Part shown: piece by piece, positions 6,740 to 30,318 of the stretch
Layout: every line of letters starts with the position of its first letter
Position numbering within the stretch: position 1 is the first letter of the stretch
Source of the DNA: a virus
IMG/VR virus record: IMGVR_UViG_3300025326_000008
Reading direction: 5' to 3' (one strand)
DNA length: 37,515 nucleotides
The notes under the pieces: model-generated
What the model was told of the DNA's origin: nothing
Seen by the model: only the letters and a program-made list of their open reading frames with translations
The model's database searches: none
Program-made: the position numbers and the translations under genes

Positions 6740-6764
6740 AAAAAAGACGCACAACTTGTGCGCC
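6740..6764 (-). terminator. Intrinsic terminator of cassette E
   Basis: Minus strand: ggcgcaca-agt-tgtgcgtc followed by U6. It contains one G-U pair that would be an A-C mismatch on the plus strand. Confidence 0.65.
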
Positions 6765-6805
6765 TCTGTCCATAAACTACGGATAACGGGCTTACTGACT
6801 CCTTT

Positions 6806-6834
6806 TGTATATCATTTATCATTATCTTTGTCAA
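6806..6834 (-). promoter_or_regulatory. Promoter of cassette E (extended -10)
   Basis: Minus strand: TTGACA (6834..6829), 17-nt spacer ending aaaTGA, TATACA (6811..6806). It starts 2 nt after the stop of 6836..8794. Confidence 0.55.
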
Positions 6835-6835
6835 T

Positions 6836-8794
6836 TTAGACCGCTTTCCAAGCACGAGGTGAATTCACCTTTAACGGTCTGCCTTCAAGAATAATTCCAA
6901 GTAATACGTAGTCTGAGTCGATAGTCGAAGTAGTGAGCCTGAATTGAACGTCTCTCAACTTCTTTCTGACGGCTACATACCTAATATCTGCCGAGTCTGA
7001 AAATAGTGAAACTGTCCCTGCGCTGTCCCCTAGTTGAACACTTCCCATCGGATCATATCCAAAACCCGACAATGAATACTCCGGTGAGATCGTAGCCGAG
7101 GTAATTCCTCTAAACCCTCCTCTTTTCTCACTTCCTGAGACTTCGAAGTTAAGTACACCTCTTGGAGCACCCAATTTAATAAAAACCTTATCTACACGGG
7201 CAAATTCCTTCCAAAGTTTGTCTAACGGATAACGACCTGAAGTGTAGTCGGTAGTAAAAGCTACTCCCAAATCCCCTTGAATATTCTCGGCTATTTTAAT
7301 TAGTTTGGTTCCGGTTAAAGGAACGTAGAGCAAATGAGTATCTCCATTGGTATCCGTAGACTCAAAGAACTGTTTAGCTCCGATTGTCCACTCAACTATC
7401 CAGCAACCCCTCTCGGTGTCTAGGATAATAATTCTCGTATTCCCTGCTGTTGAGGTTGGAACTGAGATAAATACTTTAGCATCGTAGAAGTATGAGCAAA
7501 TACCAGGGATTTTGCTTCCTTCAAGGGAGTTCCAATAAGGCCGTATCTTTGCGCTTATCTCCTCCGTTCTTAATATACCGAAATAGTTTTGTCGTGGCCC
7601 TAAATTAAACCAACCTCTCCTGTTTGGGAACATTATGTCATTCGTTGTCTGGACTACTCCCAAAAGCGATTCTGTACCAAACGAACCTACGACCTTCTGT
7701 GCTGAGGGGACTGAGAAGGTAGTCGATCCTACAGTAGCACTCGTTATCTGTATCTGCCAAACCGCCCCTTTACCTTCAGGGGTTTTACAAAGCGTGGTAA
7801 GTCGCCCCTCACCTTGGCCTGATTGATAATGAACTACCGCCTGTGGGATCTCACGGCCTCCTTTTTCAAGGTTTATCCACCCACCTCCGTAAAAGTCCGA
7901 GAATACTCCGATAAACTGCCCCGTACCTGAGAAGTAAACTTTGTACATATCATCATCGTTATTGGTGGCCCAAATTCTATTACCCGACACACACATGCTC
8001 TTAAACTTAGGTGCACTGGTTGTATTATCCTCCGGAGGAATGACGTAAGGATTAAGTTCAAGTGAGCCATCATCTACAAACGAAGCCGCAGTTGTAGAAG
8101 TTAGGAGTGTTTCATCTCCTTCTTCGTCTGAGATATATAGTTGATACCTTTGGGCGTTTGAAAGAGCCGTCCAAGACCAAGTAATTTTATCTCCACTTGT
8201 CCAAGCGTCTCTCGCTTCATTAACCGCACACGAAGCCTCAGTAGAACCCGTAGTCTCACCTATTTCGTTAAGTGCGGTAACTTGTGCATAATAGATAGTA
8301 GACCCCGCAGAAAGGGTGCTTGATTTAACCCCCGATAAACCCGTAGGAGCGTTTATTGAGTTATAAGTCGAAAGAACCGTCCCGTTATATCTAGCTAGAG
8401 AGTCTGTACCGTTTGCTATATAAAGGTATCCGGTGATCTGCATGAAGTAACACTGAACATCTGCTGTGAAGGTGGCTCCTGAGATAGAACTCCACGCTCC
8501 CCCGTCAGTTGATTTATATGCCACACCACCTGCGATTGCGATTATTTCTGTAGTACCGTCGCTTTTAACGTATTCTGCCGCTCCGTCAATCGTATCTGAA
8601 AGAGAGGCTCCGTAATAAGCCGTTCCCCATCTTGGCTTCCACTGACCATCGCCGACCAAAATTAAATTCTTACTAGTGAGAGCTTCGTCCAACCCTATCC
8701 TGGCCTCGTTGAGGAGCTTGTTGGTTCCTTTGTAAGTGGTCTGCTCTATATGAATCTTTTTATTGCCTGTCTTATTTTGTGGAAGGTTAATCAT
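6836..8794 (-). CDS. Large tail/nozzle-like structural protein (about 652 aa)
   Basis: Long ORF in the tail module, beta-rich. The track ORF extends to 8863 but overlaps the HNH gene. ATG 8794 gives an 8-nt overlap (ATGATTAA). The exact start is uncertain (8794, 8809 or 8863). Confidence 0.5.
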   Translation of the reverse strand: MINLPQNKTGNKKIHIEQTTYKGTNKLLNEARIGLDEALTSKNLILVGDGQWKPRWGTAYYGASLSDTIDGAAEYVKSDGTTEIIAIAGGVAYKSTDGGAWSSISGATFTADVQCYFMQITGYLYIANGTDSLARYNGTVLSTYNSINAPTGLSGVKSSTLSAGSTIYYAQVTALNEIGETTGSTEASCAVNEARDAWTSGDKITWSWTALSNAQRYQLYISDEEGDETLLTSTTAASFVDDGSLELNPYVIPPEDNTTSAPKFKSMCVSGNRIWATNNDDDMYKVYFSGTGQFIGVFSDFYGGGWINLEKGGREIPQAVVHYQSGQGEGRLTTLCKTPEGKGAVWQIQITSATVGSTTFSVPSAQKVVGSFGTESLLGVVQTTNDIMFPNRRGWFNLGPRQNYFGILRTEEISAKIRPYWNSLEGSKIPGICSYFYDAKVFISVPTSTAGNTRIIILDTERGCWIVEWTIGAKQFFESTDTNGDTHLLYVPLTGTKLIKIAENIQGDLGVAFTTDYTSGRYPLDKLWKEFARVDKVFIKLGAPRGVLNFEVSGSEKRGGFRGITSATISPEYSLSGFGYDPMGSVQLGDSAGTVSLFSDSADIRYVAVRKKLRDVQFRLTTSTIDSDYVLLGIILEGRPLKVNSPRAWKAV

Positions 8795-9362
8795 GAAAAA
8801 TATAATCATCCTTTCTAATTCCCCTACCTGCATAGTTGTCTGTCTGCCTATGACATTCGACACAAAGCACCCTTCCGTTATCTATGGCAAACCTTAGTTC
8901 GGGGTAAAGTGCCCATGATTTAATGTGATCAGCGTGAAGTGTTCCATCTTTCTGTCCGCAGTTTTGACAAGTGTGGTCATCCCTCATGAAGACCGCAGCC
9001 CTCCAAATGCCATACTCTTTTGACCCTCTCATTCTTTTTGTCTCTGTTCCGTTTCCGAGTCCTTTATTCCATGAAATGTTCCCCTTTTTTATTTCCGTTG
9101 TGGGGCTAAAGTGTTTTCCTTTTTTATCTAATGACTCACACCTTTTTGAACACCTTTTCCTCAAATTGGCCCATGATTTGAAAACAAAAAACTCCTTGTG
9201 GCAATACTGACAAATTAAACCAACCTTTTGAGTTCTACCTTTATAGAAGCACTCCATAGAGCAATACTTTTTTCTATTCCAAACGCCAACGCCCATCCGG
9301 TATGGACACTTAATTGTCTTTTGACAAAACTGACATTTCTTTGTTCTTTGTGTGGCTTTCAT
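8787..9362 (-). CDS. HNH endonuclease with multiple Cys motifs
   Basis: HADHIKSWALYPELRFAIDNGRVLCVECHRQT (H-N-H with CxxCH), plus CQFCQK, CSMEC, CQYCHK and CSKRC. The first ATG is at 9362 (the track start at 9371 is TTG). Confidence 0.85.
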   Translation of the reverse strand: MKATQRTKKCQFCQKTIKCPYRMGVGVWNRKKYCSMECFYKGRTQKVGLICQYCHKEFFVFKSWANLRKRCSKRCESLDKKGKHFSPTTEIKKGNISWNKGLGNGTETKRMRGSKEYGIWRAAVFMRDDHTCQNCGQKDGTLHADHIKSWALYPELRFAIDNGRVLCVECHRQTDNYAGRGIRKDDYIFHD

Positions 9363-9367
9363 ACATA

Positions 9368-10093
9368 TCAACGATTTGTTGGATTACTTGAACTTGCGAA
9401 ACCCATGTCCCCTGTGCCAAATCCTTCTAAATTATCTAAACTACTCTCGATATTAAACGGAACCCCCCAGAAGCCCGAGTTATTAACTGATTTCATCTGT
9501 TTAAGTAACCCTTCGGCTACAGTAAAGAAGTTTCCGTCTATACTGTCTGTAGACTCGCTCATGTGTGCGGCTATGAAGTAACAAAGAAAATTAGGATCGC
9601 TTGGTTCTAAAACTGTACTTGTGGCTGAACTTTGGGTAGCGGCCTTGTAATAAGGATAGTTTATTGTCCCTCCTGTAGTCGGAGTAGAGAGAGGGTTAAA
9701 CTGTAAACTATGCCCTGCTTTAGCGTTACCCTTGAAATAAACCCAATTATCGGTACTATTGGCGTACTTTCCTACTTCCTCACTAGGTAATACGTGCCAA
9801 AATGTAACCCCACCCGCACTGTCGGTAGTAGTTACATATCCCCCTTCTCGTACAAAGTCTGTAGGTGTATCGTAAGTAAAGACGGCTGCGGATACTGTTT
9901 TATCCCCCGTTGAAGCACTTGTTAGGTCAGTCCACAATTCTCTCCAAGTGGTGTTATCAAAGTGTTCCCACCTCTGGACTCCCATATTAAGGAAGGATCG
10001 TGCCGTTAAGTATTCTGAGTCGGTTGTATCCCACGTATCACTATCTTTTTCAAGAAGTGAGAAGACGTTGTTGATGATTGATTGTTCTGTCAT
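9368..10093 (-). CDS. Hypothetical virion protein (241 aa), possibly adaptor or tail-tube associated
   Basis: Lies between the internal-virion-like giant protein and the tail genes. ATG at 10093 (the track start at 10099 is TTG). No family recognised. Confidence 0.4.
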   Translation of the reverse strand: MTEQSIINNVFSLLEKDSDTWDTTDSEYLTARSFLNMGVQRWEHFDNTTWRELWTDLTSASTGDKTVSAAVFTYDTPTDFVREGGYVTTTDSAGGVTFWHVLPSEEVGKYANSTDNWVYFKGNAKAGHSLQFNPLSTPTTGGTINYPYYKAATQSSATSTVLEPSDPNFLCYFIAAHMSESTDSIDGNFFTVAEGLLKQMKSVNNSGFWGVPFNIESSLDNLEGFGTGDMGFASSSNPTNR

Positions 10094-10105
10094 GTTCAAG
10101 CCAAT

Positions 10106-10133
10106 AAAAAAGACGCAATTCGAAAATTGCGCC
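10106..10133 (-). terminator. Intrinsic terminator of cassette D
   Basis: Minus strand: ggcgcaatt-UUCG-aattgcgtc followed by U6, then 12 nt to ATG 10093. One G-U pair is valid only on the minus strand. Confidence 0.7.
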
Positions 10134-10167
10134 TTCCTCCCCAGACATGGGGATACCTAGCAATTCC

Positions 10168-10196
10168 CTTATATCATTTTTAAAACACATTGTCAA
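10168..10196 (-). promoter_or_regulatory. Promoter of cassette D (extended -10)
   Basis: Minus strand: TTGACA (10196..10191), 17-nt spacer ending aaaTGA, TATAAG (10173..10168). The leader holds a 6-bp hairpin, tcccca-tgtc-tgggga (10138..10153). Confidence 0.55.
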
Positions 10197-10240
10197 AGTT
10201 ATCCGAGCAAACTTCTAACTATCTCCGATAATTTACAGTT

Positions 10241-13200
10241 TTACTTGATAGTGTATCTCCTAATCGTTGACTTGGTTATTTTAGGTTTCTTAAATTTAAT
10301 AGTTGGTAATTTGGGTGCGGCACGCCTTTTAAGGGTAATTGTAGGGACTTTGGATTTAGTGAACTTGACGGTTATCTTTTTACCTTTCTTGGCTTTTTTG
10401 GGAGCCTTGGTCTTGTCGTAAGCGATAGAAAGTGCGTTTATCTTTTCGCTTGCTACTTCTTGAGTGATGGCTCCTGCCTCGTAAGCGTCGTATATCTTGT
10501 TTACTTGAGTTGATATGCCAGACTTGTATCTCGATATGGCTTCTTTGCCAATAGCTGTAGATTTATCAAATGTTGGGTATTCAAAAGATTTGTCGAGGTC
10601 AACTTCTATAAGTTCACCATCTTTTACATAACTTATATTTCCACCACTGACTGATTCACCACTTTCGGCAGCGTTTACTTCAATCCCATTGGACTTGGTG
10701 TTGGTAGTCTTCGGTTTGTCTTTTTTTCTAGCTTCCAAAACAGAATCGTAATATTGCTGAGCTTTGGCTGGATCAGTCTTTAATAACTTCTTATAAGTTT
10801 CTGACTGTTTATCTCCTAGAACTGAAGTGTTTGTATCAAAATACTCTCTAGCTTCGGGTGTTGAATATTGACCAAAAACCGCTCTCTGTATGTTTCTAAG
10901 CGGTGTTTGTTCTGTTGGGAACCTGACCTTGCCGGTTGCCGACTCGCTATATCCTTTTTCGGTTGCCCCAATACCTTCAATACTTCTTTTTATTTGTTGA
11001 CCTGCAAACGGAGGGAGTATCTTGAAAAGCGGATCTTGTAGGCCTTTGGTAACCAAGAGTCCCGAACCAAATCTTGTCGGATCCCCTTTACCGAAGAACT
11101 GCTCTCTTGTTGGCAACTGAGTATCACCGACCTTTGCTCCATATTCGGGATAAGCCGCAGCTAAAGATTGACCAAGTGGAACATTTGAGATAACTTCTCC
11201 CGCAAGCCTTCCTCCAGCCCTCATTAGTCCTATTTTCTTGTCTTCTTCTTCTTTGTAGGCATTGTAGGCATCTATCGACGCCTGGATCGGGTCTAAAGAC
11301 ACATCGCTTCCTCTTATTTTTTCCGCTGTCCTGTTAAATACATAAGAAGCGGCAAAGAATGTTGCAAGTTTTCCGAATTGCTTTTCTCCTACCCAATCAC
11401 CCATTACGTGCCATAAATTAGCAACTTCTAACTGGAAAGGTGCCACCATTTGAAACACCTTCGACTTTTGTATTAGAGGGACTTCACCTATGCCCCTACC
11501 CGCAACCATACCTCTCGTTGCATCATCTGCAAACTTAATAGGGTTCGGGACTTTATTTGAGAGTGCTTTTGCGTATTCTGAGTTCCAAATGTATTTAGTT
11601 CCGACATTATCTAAAACCGTGACCATCCATGCTGCAAACTTTCTGGTATTATTTATCATTCCTCTATCAAACCTGTCGAAAGCACCACTCCCATACCTCT
11701 CTGTAATAAAGTTTGACTTTTTGATGGGCGTTGCCTCATCGAAAATGTTTGCAATAGTATAACCTAAACCTTTAATTGAATTTCCAGGTCCAGCGTCTGC
11801 TATCCCCTGTGGTACATTGAATATCTGTGCCAAAGATGAACTTGCATTACCTAGAATAACATTGGCCTTTACCCTATTGTTTAGCCAATTTATTACACTC
11901 ATAGCTTTTCTTCCCCCTGGTATTACTTTTTGGATAAACCTATCTGCCGGGTTGGTTTTGCCTGCGAGATCTCTTGAAAAATCGTGTAGATATTCTATAA
12001 ATCCATTTAGTTTTGGATCAGCTTCTGTCTGTTTTGCTAAGTCATCGGCCAAAGCTCCAAACTTACTCGTAAAAGGATCAATGTTTTTACTGTACTCGGC
12101 GGCTTTAACATAATCTATAAATCCACCAACCGCATCCACGTCCGTTTGTCCGCCCAACCTCTTTTGAGCAAATGACAGCCACTTTGATTTGGGTTTGGTA
12201 AATTCACTCGTACCAGCTAGCGAAGACTTAATGTTGGCTGGACTATCAAATATGTTTAGTAGTCCAGATATTCCTCGGCTCATTTCTCTAAAGTGTCTGT
12301 AGTAGTCTTGGCGTTTTGGTATCAGCTTTTCTGGATTGTTTGGATAGATACGCTTCATGACGGCATTTACTTCATCAAGTAGTTGGTCGTATTCTTTTCT
12401 AAACCATTGATCAGCTTTAACTATGTTGTCAGCCTTCTTTTGTCCAAACTGTTGAACTATTTCTTCATAGGTTAGCTTATCCTCACCAAACATTTGAGTT
12501 GCAGCACTTTCCTTACTTCCCTTTTTAATGCCCAAATCAATCTCAATTTCTTTGTTTATTCTTTTTGACCAATTTGCATAATTTCTTGATAAATTACCTT
12601 TGGCCTGATCAAACGGATCAAGTAAAACCCTTTTAATGTTTTCAAAACCCTTCCCATATACTTCTTTGAAGTTTCTATAAACATCTCTTGTGTAAGCCTT
12701 GAATCCAGAAATATCTTTTAAGTCTTCCGCACCAACGCCTCCAACCTTAGTATTTTTTGATATAGACTTGCCTATGTCTTCTACGTTAGCCTTGGACTGC
12801 ATATAAGGTGTTCTTGTTGCACCCTCTTGTGCAAAGAGTGTTTTTTGCCATTCTTTATAATCATTATTTGCCGTTATTTTAGCTGCTCTTTCTTGTTGTA
12901 GTTTGAGTTTCTTGAGACCCGCTTCGGTTGGGACGGCACTATATGTTTTCTGTGGTATAATATCTTGTGGTACAGATACGGGTTTTACTGGTTGTGTCGG
13001 GTCTTTCACTAATCCTAGTGACTTTCCTATTTCTTCTACGTCTATAAAACCTCTTTCATATTTTGAGTCTGATACTTCATTAAATTTTATATCTTTCCCG
13101 CTCATGTTTACTTCACTTGGGAATTTTCCTTTTAATTCTGATAATATTTTGGCAAATTGTCCCAAAGCATTTCTTGTGTATTTAATTGTCGCTTCTCCAG

Positions 13201-14197
13201 TTTCTTTGATAAATGGTTTAAGTGCTCCGTATATATTCCCCACCACTTTACTTGCACCAGCAAATCCTATTTCAGAAGCGGAACCAAAAGCTATATTTTG
13301 AGCTATATACTTTTCTCTGTCTTTTTCGGGTAAATCTCCCAATGACATTAAAAGTCCCTCAATTCCACCTTTGGCTGCAAGAGATCCAACCTTAAACCAA
13401 TTGCTCATATTTTTGGTTAGATTTAGTAATTTTGTTGTTTCTCCGAATATCTTTGTATTAGTTGGATTCTTTACAAATCCAATCATGTTTCCTGCCGTTA
13501 CTAACGGATCAAACTCCATACCCAATATTTTTATATTCCTTTGTGGTACATTGGGAGATTCGATATCACCCATTCCTTGTGTTACACCGGAAGCGACTCG
13601 TCTAAGTGTGTCCGATGATGCAATTTGCGGTTGATTGACAACAAAGTTTGCACCCTGGTACAGAGGACTTGCCACCGCAGCAAAATTTCCTATACCATAG
13701 GCAGCTTTGGCCAGACCTTGTACAACCTTACCCTTGTCATTGGTTTTAATACCCGTTCCAATTAGATTTCCGGCATCTATCATCTTATTAGCACTACCCA
13801 TACCCGTTCTAAATGAATTTGTAAACATACCAGCCATACCTTGAACTCCAGCTATCGGGACATTGACAATCGGTTGTATGTATTTTTGTAGAGGTTGAGG
13901 TGTTATTTGTTGCACGCCCGACCTTAGATAGTTTCCGAAAGCTGTTGGTAATTGGGGAATTGCATTTTGTACTCTCTGGATACCACCCTCAATTCCACCA
14001 GGTGTTGCTCTGTCTAAATTTCCCCAAAAGTTGTTTCCGTTATTGGAAGTGGGATTAAAATAGGGGTGTTGTACCACCTTTTTTACTGAGTTATATGCAT
14101 TAACAGGAGGAATTAAATTAAAAGCCGTCCCACCAACAGTCTGTACACCCTGTTGAAGTCTCTTTTTTAATTCGTCTGCGATGTCTTTAAGTGTCAT
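10241..14197 (-). CDS. Giant virion protein (1318 aa), internal/ejection-protein-like
   Basis: Single long ORF between the Q-rich protein and the tail genes, as in podovirus internal-core modules. No catalytic motif recognised. Confidence 0.5.
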   Translation of the reverse strand: MTLKDIADELKKRLQQGVQTVGGTAFNLIPPVNAYNSVKKVVQHPYFNPTSNNGNNFWGNLDRATPGGIEGGIQRVQNAIPQLPTAFGNYLRSGVQQITPQPLQKYIQPIVNVPIAGVQGMAGMFTNSFRTGMGSANKMIDAGNLIGTGIKTNDKGKVVQGLAKAAYGIGNFAAVASPLYQGANFVVNQPQIASSDTLRRVASGVTQGMGDIESPNVPQRNIKILGMEFDPLVTAGNMIGFVKNPTNTKIFGETTKLLNLTKNMSNWFKVGSLAAKGGIEGLLMSLGDLPEKDREKYIAQNIAFGSASEIGFAGASKVVGNIYGALKPFIKETGEATIKYTRNALGQFAKILSELKGKFPSEVNMSGKDIKFNEVSDSKYERGFIDVEEIGKSLGLVKDPTQPVKPVSVPQDIIPQKTYSAVPTEAGLKKLKLQQERAAKITANNDYKEWQKTLFAQEGATRTPYMQSKANVEDIGKSISKNTKVGGVGAEDLKDISGFKAYTRDVYRNFKEVYGKGFENIKRVLLDPFDQAKGNLSRNYANWSKRINKEIEIDLGIKKGSKESAATQMFGEDKLTYEEIVQQFGQKKADNIVKADQWFRKEYDQLLDEVNAVMKRIYPNNPEKLIPKRQDYYRHFREMSRGISGLLNIFDSPANIKSSLAGTSEFTKPKSKWLSFAQKRLGGQTDVDAVGGFIDYVKAAEYSKNIDPFTSKFGALADDLAKQTEADPKLNGFIEYLHDFSRDLAGKTNPADRFIQKVIPGGRKAMSVINWLNNRVKANVILGNASSSLAQIFNVPQGIADAGPGNSIKGLGYTIANIFDEATPIKKSNFITERYGSGAFDRFDRGMINNTRKFAAWMVTVLDNVGTKYIWNSEYAKALSNKVPNPIKFADDATRGMVAGRGIGEVPLIQKSKVFQMVAPFQLEVANLWHVMGDWVGEKQFGKLATFFAASYVFNRTAEKIRGSDVSLDPIQASIDAYNAYKEEEDKKIGLMRAGGRLAGEVISNVPLGQSLAAAYPEYGAKVGDTQLPTREQFFGKGDPTRFGSGLLVTKGLQDPLFKILPPFAGQQIKRSIEGIGATEKGYSESATGKVRFPTEQTPLRNIQRAVFGQYSTPEAREYFDTNTSVLGDKQSETYKKLLKTDPAKAQQYYDSVLEARKKDKPKTTNTKSNGIEVNAAESGESVSGGNISYVKDGELIEVDLDKSFEYPTFDKSTAIGKEAISRYKSGISTQVNKIYDAYEAGAITQEVASEKINALSIAYDKTKAPKKAKKGKKITVKFTKSKVPTITLKRRAAPKLPTIKFKKPKITKSTIRRYTIK

Positions 14198-14209
14198 ACT
14201 GGTTCTGGC

Positions 14210-15433
14210 CTATAAGCCAGCCAGTCGCTTTAGCTCATCCTCTACTGAGGCGTTAGTTCCACCAAATTTAGCTGTCGATGTTCCTGCGGGAGCAAACTGA
14301 GGCGTTCCTGTGATCTGCCCGTATTGCTGTTGTGGGGCCGTGTAAGCTCCAATTCCTGCCATGTTTTGTTTGAGTTGCGCCAAGTTTGTAGCGTTACTCA
14401 TAGCCCAGCTCTCAAGGGATGCCTGTCGTTGAGCTGTTTGATTCTGAATAGCTGTAAGTTTCGTGATGGCTGCCTGGTAGAGATTGGTTGTAAGACTCTG
14501 TAAATCTTGAGACTTAGATAGTTGACCCTGAGCTTTGGCTGTTTGTAATTGCTGTTGTGCTGAGGCAAACCAATCGGCTATCTGACCGATTCTTGTATCT
14601 CTTTCACCTGCGAGTCTATTTTTCTCCTGCATATAGATATTGTTTAATTTAGAACCTCTGTCGGCTATATCACTTAATATTGAGGCTGTTTGGGCTTGAA
14701 CATCTCCTCTTTGCTGGCTTCCTAGTTTAGTAAGTCCGTAAGCATATTGATTAACTGCCGAAGAGTCTCCAGCCCCCATTGATCCAAGATAGGTATTTCC
14801 GGCATTCATCAAGTTTCGAATGTTTGAGGAAATGTCTTTTAAGGTCTTGACTTGGTTGGTTTGGGTCTTACCTGCCTGAATATCAAGATCGGCTTGGTTT
14901 TGATCTTTTTGAAGTCCTAAATCTGTTACATTGGTATTGTAGGAAGTGTTAGCTATTCCTTCTTGGGCTGTTTTCTGCCCTGGGAGGCTGGTATTGAGCA
15001 TATTATCCAATTCACCGAAGTAGTTTGAATATCCACCCTCGATTTGCTGTCTCATAATGTCTTCGTAAGAAGGGCCAGAAGAACCCTCTCTTTGTTTGGC
15101 TTCCCAATCAGCCTGTGCGGCAACTGGATCCCAACCTTTATATTGATCAGATGGGAACGCACCCGTGTTTGTCGGGGCGGGATTTGCTGGAGGATTCGAG
15201 GTGTTTTCACCTAAAACTTGCGGGGTGCTTGCGTAGGTATTAAGGTAGCTCTGTTGCTGTGTAGGGTTCATCTGATATGTCCCCGTTTTGTTGAGATCTG
15301 CTGTAGCTGGATTTTGATACTGATCCATAACCAAATCCGACCCTCCCGAACTATATCGAGTAAAGCCGAGTAGGTCTGAAATCCTTTCGGTTATTCCGAA
15401 ATCTGGTGTTCCCCATGATCCTGTATGTGACAT
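14210..15433 (-). CDS. Q/N/T-rich coiled-coil virion protein (407 aa)
   Basis: ORF track. Low-complexity Q-rich helical C-terminal half. Lies directly upstream of the 1318-aa gene. A TATAAG box (15445..15440) sits 6 nt upstream of the ATG. Confidence 0.5.
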   Translation of the reverse strand: MSHTGSWGTPDFGITERISDLLGFTRYSSGGSDLVMDQYQNPATADLNKTGTYQMNPTQQQSYLNTYASTPQVLGENTSNPPANPAPTNTGAFPSDQYKGWDPVAAQADWEAKQREGSSGPSYEDIMRQQIEGGYSNYFGELDNMLNTSLPGQKTAQEGIANTSYNTNVTDLGLQKDQNQADLDIQAGKTQTNQVKTLKDISSNIRNLMNAGNTYLGSMGAGDSSAVNQYAYGLTKLGSQQRGDVQAQTASILSDIADRGSKLNNIYMQEKNRLAGERDTRIGQIADWFASAQQQLQTAKAQGQLSKSQDLQSLTTNLYQAAITKLTAIQNQTAQRQASLESWAMSNATNLAQLKQNMAGIGAYTAPQQQYGQITGTPQFAPAGTSTAKFGGTNASVEDELKRLAGL

Positions 15434-15455
15434 ATTTGACTTATAGTGTTATAAT
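15427..15455 (+). promoter_or_regulatory. Plus-strand sigma70-like promoter with extended -10, 6 nt from the ATG (leaderless candidate)
   Basis: GTGACA (15427-15432), 17-nt spacer ending TGT, TATAAT (15450-15455), then taactt and ATG (15462). Confidence 0.5.
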
Positions 15456-15461
15456 TAACTT

Positions 15462-15668
15462 ATGATTAAAGCCTTTTTAGTCGGTCTTTATTATCTTGGT
15501 TTGGCATTCTACCTTTGGTTTTACTTTGCTAACCAGGGAATGGAATTTGCGGATAATTTCAGAGCTAATACCAATAAGGTGTTTATTCTTGTGGTAATAA
15601 TTCCTAATATCGTTCTATTCTTATTCCTTTTAAGGTATCTAAAATCCAAACTCACTTCTCCTCATTGA
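15462..15668 (+). CDS. Small two-TM membrane protein (68 aa), the only convincing plus-strand gene
   Basis: ORF track: LVGLYYLGLAFYLWFYF and VFILVVIIPNIVLFLFLL. It has its own promoter. The caveat is that AT-rich antisense sequence can mimic hydrophobic ORFs. Confidence 0.5.
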   Translation: MIKAFLVGLYYLGLAFYLWFYFANQGMEFADNFRANTNKVFILVVIIPNIVLFLFLLRYLKSKLTSPH

Positions 15669-15946
15669 GGCTTCGCCTCAGGGGAGTCCGTCTACAAACT
15701 GCTTACCTAGCCATCCTCCCTTCACTTCCCTCTTCTCTCTATTCCGTATTCTTAAGCGTTACGCTTGAAGTTTCCGTTTTTAGATTAAGTCGGTCGTTTG
15801 GTCGGCCTGATACCTCATCTACTATCAGGTGTAGCCTTCTAGACTTGCGATCTAGTTGGAATTCCTTAAGGTCGATTTGCGGCCGCATCTCGATTAGGTA
15901 AGTTCGTTTTTACGGAACTCCAACTAAACAACAAGTTTTAACCAAT
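15669..15946 (-). ncRNA. Candidate structured RNA or long structured leader (minus strand inferred)
   Basis: No ORF of 60 aa or more looks protein-like here. Visibly more GC-rich than its surroundings. Hairpins: 15806..15829 (7 bp), 15839..15855 (loop is GCAA on the minus strand), 15667..15679. A 12-bp long-range helix, 15854..15865 with 15914..15925, is complete only on the minus strand (G-U versus A-C). Confidence 0.35.
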
Positions 15947-15973
15947 AAAAAAACCACCCAAACAATCGGGTGG
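15947..15973 (-). terminator. Intrinsic terminator of cassette A
   Basis: Minus strand: ccaccc-gattgttt-gggtgg followed by U7. Confidence 0.65.
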
Positions 15974-16014
15974 CCCTCCGTGCGTAAATACGCACTAAAC
16001 TAGCCTATGAATAA

Positions 16015-16043
16015 TATATATCATTTCTCACTTTTGTTGTCAA
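16015..16043 (-). promoter_or_regulatory. Promoter of cassette A (extended -10)
   Basis: Minus strand: TTGACA (16043..16038), 17-nt spacer ending aaaTGA, TATATA (16020..16015). The TGA is also the stop codon of the glycosyltransferase gene. The leader hairpin gtgcgt-attt-acgcac lies at 15980..15995. Confidence 0.55.
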
Positions 16044-17160
16044 GTATTCCCCTAAAATAGTTAGCGTACTTATCCACATTGGCCTGCATGGTGTGATTCT
16101 CTTTAATATATTTATACGCCTCCTCTGCCATCTCTTTGCCTTTATCCGGATTCTCTATTAAATATGAAAGGTGGTTAACCCAATCTTCGGTACTCGAAGC
16201 TAGTAGCCCTCTTTCAGGATGGTTGGCTAGAACGTCATTGTAAGGGTCGATCCTTTCCATAATACAAGGTGTTTTACTTGCGGAGTATTCTAAGTATTTA
16301 ATATACGACTTCGCACGACTGTAATTGCTCCATGTTAAAGGTGCGACATATATATCGCACTCACTAGCCATATTGGGCCACACTTCGTCAATAAACCTAT
16401 ATACGTTGTACCTTCCTAGGGTGTACTTATACTTGTACCCAAATAAGGCTTTGAGTTGTGGCATATAGAAAGTAGTCTTGAATCTTACTTGCGGGTACTT
16501 GTCCATGATTATTCTCATAGCTTTAGTGAATTCGGGTTTGTTTACATCGGGATAATGTGAGGCCCCTCCTATATAGCCTATGGTTATTTCATCTGTTTTA
16601 ACCTTAGGTGGGATCTTCTTAAAATCATACTTAGTCAGGTCAACGTAATTAGGAAGGACGGTAATGTCTTTAATCGGTCTTTGGGTGTGTTCTACAATCT
16701 TGTATTTTAGAAAAGGATTTGTTGTAGTGAGGGAGTCTGCGTCTAAGATAATCGCAGTTCTGTTAAATAGCTTCTCACTACCTGGTTCATAATCCCCTTT
16801 GTAATAAGGGTGTGTGGGATCGACCGCCCAGATATTATCGTCTAAGTCTAAAGCTACTTTCATTCCGTACTTCATCCCTTGCACCCTTAACTCAAGATAG
16901 AACTTAACCGAGTCTGCGTATGAGAAATACATAATGTCGTAGTATTTGGACAGATCCTCGGTATTCGTAAACTTACTCGTCTTTCCACCTACTAGCTCGT
17001 AGGATATATCTACCTCAAATTCATCCTTGGGTAAGTAGGTTAGAGGGCTAATAGTTCTAGCGTAATCAACTCCACCTACATACATAATTTCTTGACCGGT
17101 ACTTTGGTTGGTTTTTAACTTGAAATTAGTCAGTGATCCTAATACTTTTATTTTCTTCAT
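16021..17160 (-). CDS. Glycosyltransferase, GT-B fold (GT1/GT4-like), 379 aa
   Basis: C-terminal half resembles the Glycos_transf_1 region (DIYVAPL...YIKYLEYSASKTPCIM). Start chosen at MKKIKVLGS (ATG 17160), giving an ATGA overlap with the upstream methyltransferase. The track ORF extends to 17193. Confidence 0.7.
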   Translation of the reverse strand: MKKIKVLGSLTNFKLKTNQSTGQEIMYVGGVDYARTISPLTYLPKDEFEVDISYELVGGKTSKFTNTEDLSKYYDIMYFSYADSVKFYLELRVQGMKYGMKVALDLDDNIWAVDPTHPYYKGDYEPGSEKLFNRTAIILDADSLTTTNPFLKYKIVEHTQRPIKDITVLPNYVDLTKYDFKKIPPKVKTDEITIGYIGGASHYPDVNKPEFTKAMRIIMDKYPQVRFKTTFYMPQLKALFGYKYKYTLGRYNVYRFIDEVWPNMASECDIYVAPLTWSNYSRAKSYIKYLEYSASKTPCIMERIDPYNDVLANHPERGLLASSTEDWVNHLSYLIENPDKGKEMAEEAYKYIKENHTMQANVDKYANYFRGILDNKSEK

Positions 17161-17615
17161 GATACCTTGCGGAGGGTGAGGTGGCACTCCCACGGGAATC
17201 TGTCCCTGTCCATTCCTATAATTTCAAACTTACACTTGGTCATACAATGTCCTCCGAATGCTTTGTCTGTAAAGTAACCGAAAAACACATCCGCCTGTTC
17301 TGGGATGTATTTAACATGGGTCGGATCTAAGAATGCGTGGGGATGGGGTAAAGTGGGAACTCGAATATCCAACACTCCACCTATCTTCAGAAACGAGCCT
17401 AATTGCTCCATCAAAGCTACTGTATCTTGGAAATGCTCTACAAAATGATGGGCGAATACTGCGTCGTATAAATAAGGAGGCTTGAAGTCAAATACCGAAC
17501 ACAACCACTTTTGTCCGTGATCTATATTGTCTAATCCCTCAGTATTAGGAATCCACCTAGTTATATCAGAACACCCTACGTTTAATGCTCGGTTTACTTC
17601 AATTTTCTTTTCCAT
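17157..17615 (-). CDS. Class I SAM-dependent methyltransferase-like protein (152 aa)
   Basis: ALNVGCS (motif I-like) and YDAVFAHHFVEHFQDTVALMEQLGSFLKIGGVLDI, a Methyltransf_11-like pattern. Confidence 0.6.
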   Translation of the reverse strand: MEKKIEVNRALNVGCSDITRWIPNTEGLDNIDHGQKWLCSVFDFKPPYLYDAVFAHHFVEHFQDTVALMEQLGSFLKIGGVLDIRVPTLPHPHAFLDPTHVKYIPEQADVFFGYFTDKAFGGHCMTKCKFEIIGMDRDRFPWECHLTLRKVS

Positions 17616-21755: not shown

Positions 21756-21786
21756 AAAAAAAGCCCACGTCCCTTCAGACGTGAGC
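21756..21786 (-). terminator. Intrinsic terminator of cassette C
   Basis: Minus strand: gctcacgtc-tgaagg-gacgtgggc (9 bp, one G-U valid only on the minus strand), followed by U7 and immediately ATG 21755. Confidence 0.7.
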
Positions 21787-21833
21787 CCGATCTACAAATG
21801 GATCAAGACCCTTAAATTAACCTATCAGGTCGC

Positions 21834-23413: not shown

Positions 23414-23956
23414 TTATTGGAAGTTAAGTATTTTAAGAAGTTCGTCGTAGTTTATTTCTTCCTTACATCTAGGACACTTTACTTTAAAATCTTTACTTCT
23501 AACTCCATCTAAATGTCTCGTTGTCCAGAGTTCTAGATTTTCAATTCTATTATCGGATTTATTACCATTTATATGGTGTATTTTTTCCCAAGGTAGTAAA
23601 TATCTACCTAGTTCCTTCTCCATTACTAAACGGTGCTCAAAAACATATTTACCACCGACAGCGTTCGGATGTGTTGGAACGTGCACTTTTCTATATCCTT
23701 TAAAGTTGATTTTTCCACCACTCCAGTTGTAATGTTTGTATCCTTTTATCCCATATCTTTCGGGATTGTATTTTCCCGCACATTTTTTGGAACAAAAGTT
23801 ACCAAACAAACCCTGACTCATTCGAGAGGGAACAACTGTATATTTTTTACTACAATATTTACATTCCCTCTCTACGAGCCGAGTGTGCCATCCGGTTACT
23901 CTATTAACGAGCCACCATTGTCCAAAGGAATCTTTTTCTTTTATATACTTTGTCAT
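23414..23956 (-). CDS. HNH homing endonuclease (HNH_3-like), paralog of 1090..1587
   Basis: FEHRLVMEKELGRYLLPWEKIHHINGNKSDNRIENLELW, plus CKYCSKK, FCSKKC and a C-terminal CPRCKEE. Confidence 0.85.
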   Translation of the reverse strand: MTKYIKEKDSFGQWWLVNRVTGWHTRLVERECKYCSKKYTVVPSRMSQGLFGNFCSKKCAGKYNPERYGIKGYKHYNWSGGKINFKGYRKVHVPTHPNAVGGKYVFEHRLVMEKELGRYLLPWEKIHHINGNKSDNRIENLELWTTRHLDGVRSKDFKVKCPRCKEEINYDELLKILNFQ

Positions 23957-24417: not shown

Positions 24418-24423
24418 CTAAAA

Positions 24424-25806: not shown

Positions 25807-25832
25807 ATTTATCACCTCTTTCCTGTTTGTTT

Positions 25833-25862
25833 TGAGTGGAAACCAAGAGCAGTTGCCACTCA
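25833..25862 (-). other. 7-bp stem-loop just downstream of the capsid gene (no U-tract)
   Basis: tgagtgg (25833-25839) pairs with ccactca (25856-25862). It could be an mRNA-stabilising or processing hairpin. Confidence 0.35.
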
Positions 25863-25871
25863 TACAAACAC

Positions 25872-26789: not shown

Positions 26790-26913
26790 TTTGTTTGTAA
26801 TAATCTACGACTCTTTTGAGTTCCTCTAAATTATTACGATATATTCACCTCCTTCTACTAAAACATTCACCCTACACCTGTAAGGTAAAGCCAATCTCTT
26901 AACGGGGTTTCTC

Positions 26914-27678: not shown

Positions 27679-27793
27679 TATTCTCACCCCATCTCTAGTA
27701 AGAACTCCTTGCACGATATGTCGGCAAGAGCTTACACAAAGCTCATAAAGAGCTTGGTGGTAGGTGTTATATAGACACCCACCGCCAAAACCT

Positions 27794-28045
27794 CTATGTC
27801 ATCCCTAACTCTTTTCGAGTTTTAAGAACAGCTTGTCCGCCTTCTTCACCAACCATGATTTTGTCTTTGCCAATAAAGATTGCGTGTTCGAGATCACACG
27901 AACCGCAAATAAGATAATATCCAGACTGCCTCCATAGATGATTACCTTTAGGCTCAAACGAGTAATCTGGCCTGCTCCAGTCAGCTTCTTCGACAATCGG
28001 TTTAACTTCCCCTTTTTCATTGTTCTTCTGCTCGTCTTGCTGCAT
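27794..28045 (-). CDS. Hypothetical protein (83 aa from MQQDEQ)
   Basis: ORF track. First ATG at 28045 (the track start at 28060 is TTG). Contains CGSCDLEH. Confidence 0.45.
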   Translation of the reverse strand: MQQDEQKNNEKGEVKPIVEEADWSRPDYSFEPKGNHLWRQSGYYLICGSCDLEHAIFIGKDKIMVGEEGGQAVLKTRKELGMT

Positions 28046-28334
28046 CGAATTTAGAGACAAAGTTGTTTAATACAAACTTTGCCAACTCTTTGACCATTGT
28101 CCTTTGTCCGAGTTCTTCCATACTCAACCCTTGAGACATCGCCTCACTCACTAATTGATCTAAATATTCTTCAAGCCTCACTTTGTACGCTTTACCTAGC
28201 TCCCACCCTTTAAAGTGTGTTATATATGCTAGGGCCGATTGATCTCCGGTTAGGCCTTTTTCTTCACCTATCTCTTCGACCTTAGATGTAAACTCTTGAT
28301 AGAAATTTGGTTTTATTGCGCTTTTATCTTCCAT
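28017..28334 (-). CDS. Hypothetical protein (105 aa)
   Basis: ORF track. Overlaps the portal stop by 11 nt. Confidence 0.5.
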   Translation of the reverse strand: MEDKSAIKPNFYQEFTSKVEEIGEEKGLTGDQSALAYITHFKGWELGKAYKVRLEEYLDQLVSEAMSQGLSMEELGQRTMVKELAKFVLNNFVSKFDAARRAEEQ

Positions 28335-30231
28335 TAATCATTCCTCCTTGCATTGGTTGACCTTGTGGCATCCCTTGAGGGGGCACACCCTGTGGTGGCA
28401 GTCCTTGAGGCATGGGTGGTTGTGCTGGCATACCATCCGGGCCTACAGGTGGAGGTTGTGGGGGAACTTGGTTTACACTCTGAGATGTCATGCCTTGAAT
28501 AACCTGCATTAACTTTTCTCTGTCTTCGGCCATCTTTCCTTCTATGTCATCTTCTGTGTCTACAACGATCTTGTCCCAATCTTGAATGCCGGAAGCGCTT
28601 ACGATCCTTGTTAGAGACTCTCCGAACATAAATTGTTTCTTTTCTTTCTTTAACTGAAGTAATAGTGGGCTTTCGGCCTCACCCGTTTGTGGATTGATCT
28701 GAATGCCGTTAGACATCAATCCAAATAGGCTAATAAGAGATTGGTTTTGTTTTTCTTTGTCGGCTGCGAAGGTTGAACCCTCAACAATCTCATAATCGTA
28801 GAGAGTAGAACCGAATTTGCTCTTGGGAATCTCCAACTTACCGCTCTTTTCATCAAACATTCCTTCAATTTCAGGATAGGTCTGCTTTAATTTGTCAATT
28901 TCGTCTCCAAACATCCTTACAGCTACCGATCCGGTCATCTTTTTACTTATCAAGTTCACAAACTTCTTCATTACAGAGGTCATAAACCTTTCTGTATAGA
29001 ATCTATCTACCGTATCTCTGGCGTTTTCTCTTGAGGCTTGCATCTTTAGAGCCTGAGGAGTCTTACCGAAGCCTGGATCACTCTCTCTTGTGTTTGTAGT
29101 ATCGGTTGTACCGAACATATTTAATAAGGAGGCGTTCATGGCTCCGTAAACTTGGTTGAACTCGGCTATTCCTTGAGGAGAGAGGTTAAGAGTTGAAGCT
29201 CCGTTCATGGCTTGGGGGCCTTTCATCAGCCATTTAGCAGCCGCAGCCCATTTAATTGAACTTTGATCGCTTACTGCGTCTTCGTTAATAAGTACCGGAG
29301 GGAAAATGGACACTTTAACTGCATCTAAGTAGAGGTTCCAAAGTGAGTTAATTCCATACTGCATGGGTTTACCTCTTTCAAAGTCACCCATCCCCATGAA
29401 GTCATCTAAGAGAGGGATAGAGTATTTGTTGACTATTGGAAGCTCTCCGTTCTCGTGGGGGTTGTCCTGATCTCTAAACTCCATGTCCGCATCCACACAC
29501 CAGTCAATCCAACGGTCTTTCTCGTATAGTGAAATGACCTTAAACTTGCCGGAGTTTTTAGCCGCTTCTTCTTCGGGATAGTCGTGTTCCTCTCTGGCGC
29601 TCTTCTCGTCTTGATCTCTTTGCCCTCTACTACCGGCTTTGTCCTTGAGTGCCTTAATGATCTTATCAATATTCTTGTATCCTTTAGCCTTAGATAGTCC
29701 TTCAAAATAACTGAGTGGTTGCCAGCTTTTAACACCTATCTTGTCGCTATCCTCAACCGACACTCTTCCTACCTGAGGGAGGATGTTTCTCATCGAAATC
29801 AACCACATATCCGGCCCTGTGTATCCGTCGGGTCTTTTAGCTTGCCAATCTACCAATGCAAAAAAGTTTCCGTATATATTTGAGTAGAGGTTCATCATCC
29901 TGGCTTTAGTAAGGAAGTCGAATTGAGCGTTAGCGTTAGGAAGGACATATTTATCTAATATAAGGTTCATTAAAGCCTCACCACCCAAATCATTCTTACT
30001 AATGCCTTTAATTTTACCTGTAGGGAGTTGAGCCATGACTCTTGCGCTTCTATCTAGTGCTATTGTGGGGAGTTTGGGGTCAAACATCTGACTCTTGGTC
30101 TTGCCTGATATGTCATCCGACAAATACCCATGAAGAATGTTCTCGTATTCAGTCCATAGTGGCCTTTTAACACGGAGATAGTCCTCAGCCTTTTGCTCGA
30201 AATCTAATATGTCGTTTCTTAATTTTGACAT
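28324..30231 (-). CDS. Portal protein (635 aa) with a P/Q-rich C-terminal tail
   Basis: Size and position (after the terminase genes, before scaffold and capsid). The C-terminus reads PPQPPPVGPDGMPAQPPMPQGLPPQGVPPQGMPQGQPMQGG. Confidence 0.65.
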   Translation of the reverse strand: MSKLRNDILDFEQKAEDYLRVKRPLWTEYENILHGYLSDDISGKTKSQMFDPKLPTIALDRSARVMAQLPTGKIKGISKNDLGGEALMNLILDKYVLPNANAQFDFLTKARMMNLYSNIYGNFFALVDWQAKRPDGYTGPDMWLISMRNILPQVGRVSVEDSDKIGVKSWQPLSYFEGLSKAKGYKNIDKIIKALKDKAGSRGQRDQDEKSAREEHDYPEEEAAKNSGKFKVISLYEKDRWIDWCVDADMEFRDQDNPHENGELPIVNKYSIPLLDDFMGMGDFERGKPMQYGINSLWNLYLDAVKVSIFPPVLINEDAVSDQSSIKWAAAAKWLMKGPQAMNGASTLNLSPQGIAEFNQVYGAMNASLLNMFGTTDTTNTRESDPGFGKTPQALKMQASRENARDTVDRFYTERFMTSVMKKFVNLISKKMTGSVAVRMFGDEIDKLKQTYPEIEGMFDEKSGKLEIPKSKFGSTLYDYEIVEGSTFAADKEKQNQSLISLFGLMSNGIQINPQTGEAESPLLLQLKKEKKQFMFGESLTRIVSASGIQDWDKIVVDTEDDIEGKMAEDREKLMQVIQGMTSQSVNQVPPQPPPVGPDGMPAQPPMPQGLPPQGVPPQGMPQGQPMQGGMINGR

Positions 30232-30257
30232 GAAAAAAGGCCCCCTTTTCGGGAGCC
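30232..30257 (-). terminator. Intrinsic terminator of cassette B, abutting the portal ATG
   Basis: Minus strand: ggctccc-gaaaa-gggggcc (one G-U valid only on the minus strand), U6, one C, then ATG 30231. Confidence 0.65.
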
Positions 30258-30289
30258 CACGATACGTATGTCGTAAGACTAACTAAATA

Positions 30290-30318
30290 AAAATATCATT
30301 TGTTAGCACTTCTGTCAA
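30290..30318 (-). promoter_or_regulatory. Promoter of cassette B (extended -10)
   Basis: Minus strand: TTGACA (30318..30313), 17-nt spacer ending aaaTGA, TATTTT (30295..30290). Confidence 0.5.

Follow-up and report, generated by a model that had tools for sequence, protein, structure and literature searches.

The DNA analysed here (the window) is a 37,515-nt stretch from an uncultured phage (IMG/VR virus record IMGVR_UViG_3300025326_000008). Its minus strand carries five cassettes, A to E, each made up of a promoter, a leader and an intrinsic terminator, and the coordinates and sequences given for them in a preliminary description were correct on rechecking. The promoter motif described there as common to all five, TTGACA-N17-TATAnn with a TG, is present in A, B, D and E but not in C, which has only TGATATAAT (21842-21834, minus strand) without a -35 hexamer. 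Similarly, B to E do lie directly before late genes, but A does not.

Cassette B precedes the portal gene. Its promoter (30290-30318) consists of TTGACA at 30318-30313, a 17-nt spacer with TG, and TGA-TATTTT ending at 30290. It is followed by a leader hairpin, H1 (30259-30274, ACGA-cauacgua-UCGU), with UUAGUCUU just 5' of it, and by a terminator (30232-30258, GGGCUCCC-gaaaa-GGGGGCC, -15.2 kcal/mol), whose stem occupies 30258-30239 and whose U6 tract (30238-30233) is separated by a single C from the portal ATG at 30231. Two small minus-strand ORFs, which form one BLAST cluster, lie 5' of the cassette at 30326-30677 (30483-30677 and 30326-30496). A structure model of the second matched no PDB entry and no antiterminator structure.

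The other cassettes also run promoter, leader, terminator. The terminator of C (21756-21788, a 12-bp stem and U7, -17.6 kcal/mol) directly abuts ATG 21755, where the first glycosyltransferase gene of the sugar island begins. Cassette D comprises a promoter (10168-10196, TTGACA-N14-TGA-TATAAG), a leader hairpin (10153-10138, UCCCCA-uguc-UGGGGA; leader z = -4.1) and a terminator with a UUCG loop and U6 (10135-10106), 12 nt past which stands ATG 10093 of an adaptor-like gene with a weak SU10_adaptor match. In E the promoter (6806-6834, TTGACA-N14-TGA-TATACA) is followed by an irregular stem (6799-6768) and a terminator stem with U6 (6766-6740), 47 nt before GTG 6692 of the fibre gene. D and E also have GGCGCA...TGCGTCTTTTTTAT in common, as had been noted. 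The promoter of A (16015-16043; TTGACA at 16043-16038, N14, TGA-TATATA ending at 16015) overlaps the stop of a glycosyltransferase gene (16021-17193) and leads into a hairpin (15995-15980, GUGCGU-auuu-ACGCAC) and a terminator hairpin with U7 (15979-15947), the leader folding at -28.2 kcal/mol (z = -4.7). The 514 nt 3' of A hold a membrane ORF on the opposite strand (15462-15668) together with the promoter of that ORF (15427-15455), and only beyond them comes gene 14210-15433; no minus-strand promoter-like sites are listed between terminator A and this gene.

The plus strand carries a sixth unit (37363-37455), which overlaps the 3' end of gene 49-399 in antisense and has a promoter TTGACC-N14-TGA-TATACT (37363-37391) and a long-loop hairpin with T6 (37409-37455). 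It appears again at 1-67 because of the terminal overlap of the sequence. A similar opposite-strand unit is seen in the relative L148 (7118-7082), and neither unit has a gene downstream.

These elements are well above chance in the window. TTGACA-N14-TGATATA with at most two mismatches occurs six times against 1.4 expected, a number reached in 0/100 shuffles, and four of the six matches fall precisely on A, B, D and E. A scan for hairpins with T tracts returned five strong minus-strand sites (-11.9 kcal/mol or lower), which are exactly cassettes A to E, and the five leaders have folding energies of -18 to -28 kcal/mol (z = -2.4 to -4.7). The cassettes differ from one another in leader sequence, H1 loop and 5' motif. 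TAGGnT words are indeed present in leaders A, C and D, but their proposed role as a sigma-dependent pause element has no statistical support, minimal TAnnnT elements showing no enrichment in the initial transcribed regions of the family (23/63 versus 21.7 in shuffled sequences, P = 0.40).

The promoter-before-terminator order is conserved in related phages. Among 67 distinct relatives with 50-80% portal identity, 59 have promoter, leader of about 57 nt, H1, terminator, U5-8 and start codon in this order upstream of the portal gene, with a TTGAC-type -35 standing 79-125 nt 5' of the portal ATG; in 32 of these 59 the gap between T tract and start codon is 0-2 nt. Most of the remaining eight have an extended -10 without a -35, or a match to the RNA model further upstream. 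By our reading, several relatives have an ATG or GTG right after the U tract although the portal start is called further downstream. The pair of small ORFs sits just upstream of the portal cassette in 34/35 long loci, and in relatives the -35 hexamer falls inside the last codons of the second (...KRKKY.LDK). Among the relatives is a prophage whose neighbouring genes resemble those of Candidatus Roizmanbacteria, a CPR bacterium. The positions of A and C recur at equivalent gene junctions in L008, L052 and L090: a promoter overlaps or lies just past the homologous glycosyltransferase gene in all three, and the L090 equivalent of C (8184-8209) precedes that phage's sugar island. In L148 a TGATATAAT-type element stands before a hairpin-T6-ATG unit (3809-3839). 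The arrangement is also strand-specific, since in 23 long relatives a promoter lies within 100 nt upstream of 31/52 coding-strand terminators versus 1/26 on the other strand.

Both hairpins of the portal leader, H1 and the terminator, are under selection at the RNA level. A MAFFT alignment of 17 sequences had 96% of cells paired and double changes in 10/11 pairs (0/500 shuffles), compared with 37-55% paired in slid controls, and a covariance-model alignment of 53 distinct sequences was 98% paired, with 27 G-U in two basal terminator-stem pairs. The window type of H1 is kept in nine distinct relatives of the window clade (94% paired, 0/500 shuffles), with compensatory changes in all four pairs. 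Searches with the covariance model gave 63 sites. None is on the non-coding strand, and apart from two or three they directly precede the portal gene. The portal leader also has a conserved single-stranded AGCYRATR motif, and the word CTAAT recurs in the H1 loop. The many G-U pairs and compensatory changes on the coding strand argue that the structures act as coding-strand RNA, as had been proposed for the minus strand of the window from G-U pairs in four of the five stems; the correct count is five of five.

The claim that portal, sugar island and adaptor/tail genes need read-through also stands, because B, C and D leave no space for a further promoter after the terminator. In L090 an ordinary terminator (3395-3439) is followed by promoter, leader, terminator and portal ATG, so that the L090 portal gene has to be transcribed across the terminator of its cassette. 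Portal and other late genes are thus readable only through a stop signal, as in the lambda late switch.

Our best explanation, in which we place slightly less than even confidence, is that the cassettes are self-limited late transcription units with conditional read-through, following the logic of lambda PR'-tR'/Q and AlpA. Host RNA polymerase with the primary sigma factor would initiate at the near-consensus extended -10 promoter, transcribe a leader of about 45-85 nt (median 57), and then reach a canonical intrinsic terminator with its U tract against the next gene's start codon. In the portal cassettes the leader is made up of a short unpaired motif, an H1 of 4-6 bp and a linker of 3-6 nt. 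Termination is probably efficient, so that by default the majority of transcripts would stop there as short RNA. Read-through would be regulated rather than constant, and the portal, sugar island, internal/tail, adaptor and fibre genes would be expressed once a trans-acting factor had made the polymerase terminator-resistant later in infection, from several loading points instead of one. After read-through, the hairpin and U tract would serve as 5' untranslated region for an mRNA that lacks a Shine-Dalgarno sequence. Precedents for this logic include AlpA (PMC7969949), Q (bioRxiv 10.1101/651190; PMC6606751) and BrrG (bioRxiv 10.1101/2024.11.20.624540).

No recognisable factor for Q-type antitermination, the logic initially suggested, came to light. 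Among the window proteins that were scanned against Pfam and PHROGs, none was homologous to Q, N, Nun, NusG/RfaH/LoaP or an alternative sigma factor. By eye, the promoter spacers have in common AAATGA ahead of the -10 and nothing that resembles a binding element of the Q or AlpA type. Of two early proteins put forward as regulators, the 145-aa protein (36336-36773) has a predicted fold that matches neither Q nor any other antiterminator structure, and its homologues are named Zn-ribbon ssDNA-binding proteins. The fetched relatives keep the portal leader but lack homologues of the Mor-like protein (36770-36967) and of all other early window proteins. As the leader is conserved across differing early gene sets, its partner may be the polymerase itself, some other host component or a conserved structural-module protein, rather than an early protein of the window. 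We count against conditional read-through the absence of an antiterminator or sigma homologue, the lack of enrichment of -10-like elements and the poor conservation of early proteins, and also cassette A and the plus-strand unit, which have no gene directly downstream and better fit stand-alone RNA genes.

This last point leads to a rather doubtful alternative, that the cassettes are primarily small-RNA genes of 45-85 nt, with their own strong promoter and Rho-independent terminator. Their RNA, a single-stranded 5' motif, central hairpin, A/U linker and terminator with U tail, would either affect host or phage targets in trans or titrate a protein, and downstream genes would be fed by leakage. 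Such an architecture is typical of bacterial small RNAs, and the conserved AGCYRATR motif, the recurring CTAAT word and the units at 37363-37455 (plus strand) and L148 7118-7082 are consistent with it. No Rfam family matches the motif, the weak similarities being all to sRNAs or leaders (e.g. isrD, 19 bits), and in Stx phages the short RNA made from a lambda-type PR' has a function of its own as an sRNA (PMC7547250). However, with the U tract so close to the portal start (32/59) and no other promoter, the unit is also the sole route to portal mRNA. The five window leaders differ and therefore have no common seed, and complementarity of cassette RNA to the rest of the genome does not exceed 10-11 nt, which is chance level. 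A small-RNA role is in any case compatible with conditional read-through, not exclusive of it.

It is unlikely that the cassettes are instead constitutive attenuators or insulators, in which fixed partial termination sets the ratios between late gene blocks without an antiterminator. The terminator would cut back both incoming transcription and that of its own promoter. H1 and the terminator hairpin would insulate folding and stabilise mRNA 5' ends, and the U-rich tract would be where ribosomes land on mRNAs that lack a Shine-Dalgarno sequence. A conserved leader amid varying early gene sets is expected if only host machinery is involved; most window genes lack a Shine-Dalgarno sequence, the start codons that we read right after the U tract in several relatives would suit such a landing site, and no conserved alternative pairing was found. 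Against this, G+C-rich 7-12-bp stems with U6-U8 (-12 to -18 kcal/mol) are the signature of efficient terminators, a weaker promoter would be more economical than a near-consensus one with a fixed strong stop right behind it, and L090 has a separate terminator for upstream transcripts.

Far less probable is a leader that serves as a cis-acting RNA antiterminator or protein-binding operator, whether put-like and acting directly on RNA polymerase, nut-like with a linear box and a hairpin to which a small basic protein and Nus factors bind, or an operator through which a conserved structural-module protein regulates itself. The linear motif adjoining a short hairpin resembles a boxA-boxB layout, selection is on RNA structure and not DNA sequence, and the element travels with the structural module, not the early genes. 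Yet H1 loops and 5' motifs differ among the window cassettes, so one RNA-binding protein is unlikely to read all five; an always-working put-type element would make its own terminator pointless, and neither an arginine-rich N-like protein nor an Rfam family was recognised. A T7-like promoter with a processing hairpin was rejected.

Among known systems, the lambdoid PR'/tR'/Q switches (Q-lambda, Q21, Q82) likewise have a constitutive sigma-70 promoter, a close intrinsic terminator and late genes that are read once the polymerase is terminator-resistant, and their accumulating short terminated RNA can itself be an sRNA (StxS, PMC7547250). They have one unit per genome, with the terminator at +194, whereas the window has five or six, with terminators at about +45-85, a U tract that abuts the start codon and a covarying leader hairpin, and with no Q homologue or Q-binding element recognised and no statistical support for a -10-like pause element. 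AlpA of Pseudomonas aeruginosa, a small DNA-binding protein, similarly allows bypass of intrinsic terminators immediately before the first gene and acts at more than one locus (PMC7969949; PMC9371919). It does not resemble Q in sequence, which shows how homology searches can miss a factor of this type. AlpA depends on a specific element located between -35 and -10, whereas the window promoters share AAATGA only, and the small helix-turn-helix protein of the window is Mor-type and not conserved in relatives. Lambda N/nut (boxA and boxB) has the same succession of promoter, leader RNA with linear motif and short hairpin, terminator and genes, but in the cassettes the motif is not boxA, the hairpin abuts it, leaders within one genome differ and no N-like protein was found. 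The put RNA is formed by a pair of larger stem-loops and is not known to be a terminator in its own right, in which the cassettes differ from it. In HK022 put (PMC9378689), LoaP (PMC12691694) and conAn (PMC8191782), too, a structured promoter-near leader governs terminator passage in a mobile element, although LoaP and conAn need dedicated proteins not seen in the window.

The five minus-strand cassettes of the window, each consisting of a promoter, a short leader and an intrinsic terminator, agree in all coordinates and sequences with the preliminary description when the DNA is read directly: A (16043-15947), B (30318-30232, in front of the portal gene), C (21842-21756, in front of the sugar island), D (10196-10106, in front of an adaptor-like gene) and E (6834-6740, in front of the fibre gene). 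Sigma-70-type promoters are made up of TTGACA- and TATAAT-like hexamers 16-18 bp apart, with an optional TG at -15/-14. Promoters A, B, D and E are of this type, with a perfect -35, a spacer of 17 and the TG, the last -10 position not being T in three of the four; cassette C has an extended -10 only. Six matches to TTGACA-N14-TGATATA with at most two mismatches were found against 1.4 expected, four of them being cassettes A, B, D and E and the other two plus-strand promoters. Intrinsic terminators comprise, on the strand that is transcribed, a G+C-rich hairpin with a U tract directly after it, and five window sites have this form, with 7-14 pairs, U6-U7 and energies of -11.9 to -17.6 kcal/mol. 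A scan for hairpins with T tracts, using folding energies, returned five strong minus-strand terminators (<= -11.9 kcal/mol), which are exactly those of cassettes A-E, and at every strong coding-strand terminator of the window a promoter sits 31-40 nt ahead of the stem (for C, the extended -10 only). The proposed folding of the leaders gave z-scores of -2.4 to -4.7 across the window, and a smaller hairpin lies ahead of the terminator in four of the five centroid folds, only C lacking one.

The claim that the cassettes stand directly ahead of late genes fails for A, where an opposite-strand membrane ORF with its own promoter intervenes. This small ORF (15427-15901, plus strand) lies between cassette A and the gene for a 407-aa protein, and transcripts continuing past the terminator of cassette A would run antisense to it; an unrelated opposite-strand ORF occupies the equivalent position in the related locus L052 (16731-17165, minus strand). 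A sixth unit, at 37363-37455 on the plus strand and so opposite to the gene strand, comprises a cassette-type promoter, 17 nt, and a hairpin with T6. It overlaps the 3' end of gene 49-399 in antisense and is reminiscent of the lambda oop RNA; a similar unit is found at 7118-7082 of L148, a locus from another phage group with a common early module.

The ends of the window are identical (1-127 = 37389-37515), which makes it a complete genome of 37,388 bp, either circular or with terminal redundancy; its portal protein is also found on a public contig of 37,525 bases. Nearly all genes lie on the minus strand. The Mor-like helix-turn-helix protein and the Zn-ribbon protein come first, behind a perfect consensus promoter, followed by the small and large terminase, a glycosyltransferase and two small ORFs, and then by the portal, a scaffold-like protein and the major capsid protein. 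The sugar island, rich in glycosyltransferases, is next, then the 407-aa and 1318-aa proteins, the adaptor-like protein, a 675-aa protein and the fibre, and finally peptidase and nuclease genes. Three HNH endonuclease genes (Pfam HNH or HNH_3; 1090-1611, 8787-9371 and 23414-23956) are scattered through the structural and nuclease regions and are probably homing endonucleases, and gene 34998-35309 looks HNH-like by eye, with no Pfam match. Within gene 33612-34478, a 12-nt unit in about 21 copies (33824-34079) encodes a DSVx-type tetrapeptide repeat (DSVG, ASVW, DSVR and similar). No cultured relative was matched among 50,697 phage records (megablast of 12 kb; tblastn of the portal).

Metagenomes hold more than 850 portal homologues. 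From 91 related loci that were fetched, 67 distinct portal upstream regions were compared, and the order of promoter before terminator, which the preliminary description had proposed to seek in related phages, is present in full ahead of the portal in 59 of them. In these, TTGAC lies 79-125 nt upstream of the portal start codon, followed by a -10 element, often with TG, and the distance between the start codon and the T5-T8 tract after the G+C-rich stem is 0-2 nt in 32, 3-12 nt in 19 and larger in eight. Most of the eight regions lacking the full arrangement have an extended -10 and no -35, or an RNA-model match further upstream. Across 23 long relatives, a promoter stands within 100 nt upstream of 31/52 coding-strand terminators vs 1/26 on the opposite strand. 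Equivalents of cassette A follow the homologous last glycosyltransferase gene in L008, L052 and L090, with a homologue of gene 14210-15433 next in L052 and L090, and a type-C cassette precedes the sugar island of L090. For cassette D, gene 9368-10093 had no relatives in the viral contigs searched; for E, relatives of the fibre gene share just a widespread domain and lack the cassette. Cassettes at different gene junctions and in different genomes carry near-identical or identical terminators (portal cassettes of L004 and L036, L090 8184-8209, window positions 10106-10135 and 6740-6766), a pattern that looks like copying of the cassette as a unit.

The cassette terminators would stop the transcripts of their own promoters, and late gene expression would then require that they be overcome. 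This reading draws on two observations: no promoter follows the terminator, and in L090 an ordinary terminator lies upstream of the portal cassette promoter, which leaves, as the only route to portal transcripts in that locus, initiation at the cassette promoter and passage through the terminator of the same cassette. Conditional read-through is accordingly ranked first among the explanations, as a tentative preference.

The leader itself is conserved as RNA. The portal leader of most relatives consists, from 5' to 3', of AGCYRATR, a hairpin (H1), a linker ending in TTAA, and the terminator; position 6 of the motif is A in 52/52, and H1 has 4-6 bp with a loop that often begins TMTAAT. An unfitted MAFFT alignment of 17 sequences has 96% of cells paired and both sides changed in 10 of the 11 pairs, values matched by none of 500 shuffles, with a partner-sliding control at 37-55% pairing. 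A covariance model derived from this alignment found 63 sites, all on the coding strand and all but two or three adjoining the portal gene upstream. When 53 distinct sequences were aligned by the model, 98% of cells pair, in an alignment that leans toward the model and with controls far lower. The terminator stem of the relatives also covaries, T5-T8 following it, and its two basal pairs include 27 G-U pairs; the structure is therefore read as coding-strand RNA. The distance from the -10 to AGCYRATR varies from 6 to 22 nt, which suggests that the motif belongs with H1 rather than with the start site. The window's own clade lies outside the reach of the model and has an H1 of the form NNRA-CAUWCGUA-UYNN, with compensatory changes in four of four pairs (nine distinct sequences). 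RNAalifold predicted nothing on the mixed MAFFT alignment, because variable H1 loops were misaligned, and a uniform subset with the covariance model was used instead. No Rfam 15 family matched the leaders (best 17-21 bits vs gathering thresholds of 37-55), and an exact-pattern scan of viral contigs for H1 and linker gave one match, attributable to chance. In the leaders of relatives, the bases flanking H1 tend to be identical (alignment A4, columns 8/54, the purine before H1 and the base after: G..G 12 and A..A 13 vs G..A 5 and A..G 4; Fisher P = 0.015). A three-codon mini-ORF, ATG-NNN-CTN-TAA, overlies H1 in only 13/53 distinct leaders. The conserved linker word TTAAGG was considered as a Shine-Dalgarno sequence; we ascribe it instead to the A tract together with the basal part of the terminator stem.

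Two other explanations were weighed against conditional read-through. The cassettes could be small-RNA genes, a live rival that we rank below conditional read-through. The predicted short RNA of the portal cassettes has a median of 57 nt; when the genome was searched for sequences antisense to the window leaders, only 10-11-mers were found, as expected by chance. A rival of nearly equal weight is that the cassettes are fixed attenuators. In a separate reading, attenuators with alternative hairpins, of the trp or riboswitch type, have a conserved antiterminator pairing that rivals the terminator; none was found in the leaders, the 5' arm of the terminator pairing upstream in only 26% of truncated folds. 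T7-like units combine a phage RNA polymerase and its specific promoters with an RNase III hairpin, and this alternative is dismissed, since no RNA polymerase was matched by the window proteins scanned, the promoters are of sigma-70 consensus and the hairpins carry U tracts.

The Pfam and PHROGs matches of the window proteins scanned include none to families of Q, N, NusG paralogues, sigma factors or RNA polymerases. The Mor-like protein (gene 36770-36967) passes the Pfam cut-off, and homologues of the 145-aa early protein (gene 36336-36773) are named Zn-ribbon ssDNA-binding proteins. The predicted structure of the latter (pLDDT 78) gave no PDB match below E = 0.3 and no Q structure among the matches; a divergent Q-like fold may exist in some window protein lacking a structure model. 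For the Mor-like protein and all other early proteins of the window, homologues are absent from those fetched relatives that have retained the leader, among them L091 (78% portal identity, 7.8 kb of upstream sequence), and the Mor-like HMM had no match in portal-family loci. In the L148 group, the Mor-like and Zn-ribbon pair recurs together with a TGATATAAT-hairpin-T6-ATG unit and a promoter-terminator unit on the opposite strand; this co-occurrence is suggestive of a link, not decisive. L148 also carries TnpB/Cas12f-like, Cpn60 chaperonin and Acb2/Tad1-like genes (12307-16865). Given the missing antiterminator families and the unconserved early proteins, the putative partner of the conserved leader is more likely host machinery or a conserved structural-module protein. 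Two overlapping small ORFs just upstream of cassette B (30326-30677, minus strand) form one BLAST cluster with homologues in 34/35 long loci, always placed after the terminase/glycosyltransferase genes and before the portal cassette. The product of one (30326-30496) is modelled as a helix, a beta hairpin and a basic KRKRY tail (pLDDT 71), with no match in Pfam or, searched with the predicted structure, in the PDB.

L076 is a prophage on a 138-kb contig (Ga0208373_1000130). From position 5430 on it matches the 35-kb contig L075 at 99.9% identity, and mraZ and neighbouring bacterial genes lie upstream of the junction at about 5430. The 90%-identity cluster of its mraZ product includes Candidatus Roizmanbacteria proteins, which argues that L076 infects a CPR bacterium. 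Other relatives were binned with Gracilibacteria, Saccharibacteria, Gammaproteobacteria and Chloroflexi, such binning being unreliable for short contigs. At least part of the phage family therefore infects CPR bacteria. A Shine-Dalgarno sequence is absent from most window genes. The start of the Mor-like gene lies 7 nt past a perfect TTGACA-16-TATAAT promoter (36965-37002) and that of the small terminase gene 8 nt past TATAAT (33005-33020), and from their sequences both mRNAs look leaderless.

To our knowledge, gene regulation in Candidatus Roizmanbacteria-type bacteria and their phages is largely unexplored. A more specific proposal, which we hold to be improbable, is that the 5' motif and H1 form a new cis-acting RNA signal of CPR phages that recruits host polymerase-associated factors or a packaging/head-module protein and switches its own terminator off. 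If so, they would represent a new antitermination class, or a new class of autoregulation of portal synthesis, independent of Q, N, put and NusG paralogues, and the cassette would spread between gene junctions as a copyable module. The analysis yields a well-defined, strongly covarying RNA element outside Rfam and a covariance model that detects it, and it cautions that, when genomes of this kind are annotated, a terminator is not to be taken as the end of an operon. Short of a motif-by-motif comparison with a large catalogue of viral structured RNAs (PMC10690425), no earlier account is known to us of a genome with several promoter-leader-terminator cassettes and a covarying hairpin in the leader that abuts the portal start codon.

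Compared with known systems, the layout of motif and hairpin is similar to that of lambda nut, the motif of the window family being AGCYRATR and not CGCTCTTA. Lambda N antitermination depends on a boxA consensus, a boxB hairpin and an N protein rich in arginine; nothing N-like was recognised among the window proteins scanned, and CGCTCTAA was rejected as boxA because the word is the covarying H1 stem and loop. The put RNA of HK022 has two specific stem-loops that act on RNA polymerase with no protein. Lambdoid Q antitermination uses a phage-encoded Q-family protein and a sigma-dependent pause element, a -10-like hexamer in the initial transcribed region. Words of the -10-like kind are present in some leaders (TAGGCT in A, TAGGTT in C, TAGTCT in B) and do not form a statistically supported class (TAnnnT in 23/63 initial transcribed regions vs 21.7 in shuffles, P = 0.40); TGnTA is enriched (15 vs 5.8 in 63 leaders). 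Q and AlpA systems also have a factor-binding DNA element in or beside the promoter, common to all target promoters, and alignment by eye of the six window promoter spacers showed only AAA-TGA before the -10 in common. Of the lambdoid-type interpretation, the read-through logic stands, and the Q-specific features do not. As in Q and AlpA systems, the terminator lies between the promoter and the first regulated gene in both the window cassettes and the relatives. The control logic of the lambdoid late switch, in which a promoter is locked by its own terminator, would then be used at several points of the late region in a large family of uncultured phages. This logic resembles that of lambda PR'-tR'/Q, of BrrG (bioRxiv 10.1101/2024.11.20.624540) and of AlpA, for which two target operons are directly preceded by intrinsic terminators (PMC7969949).
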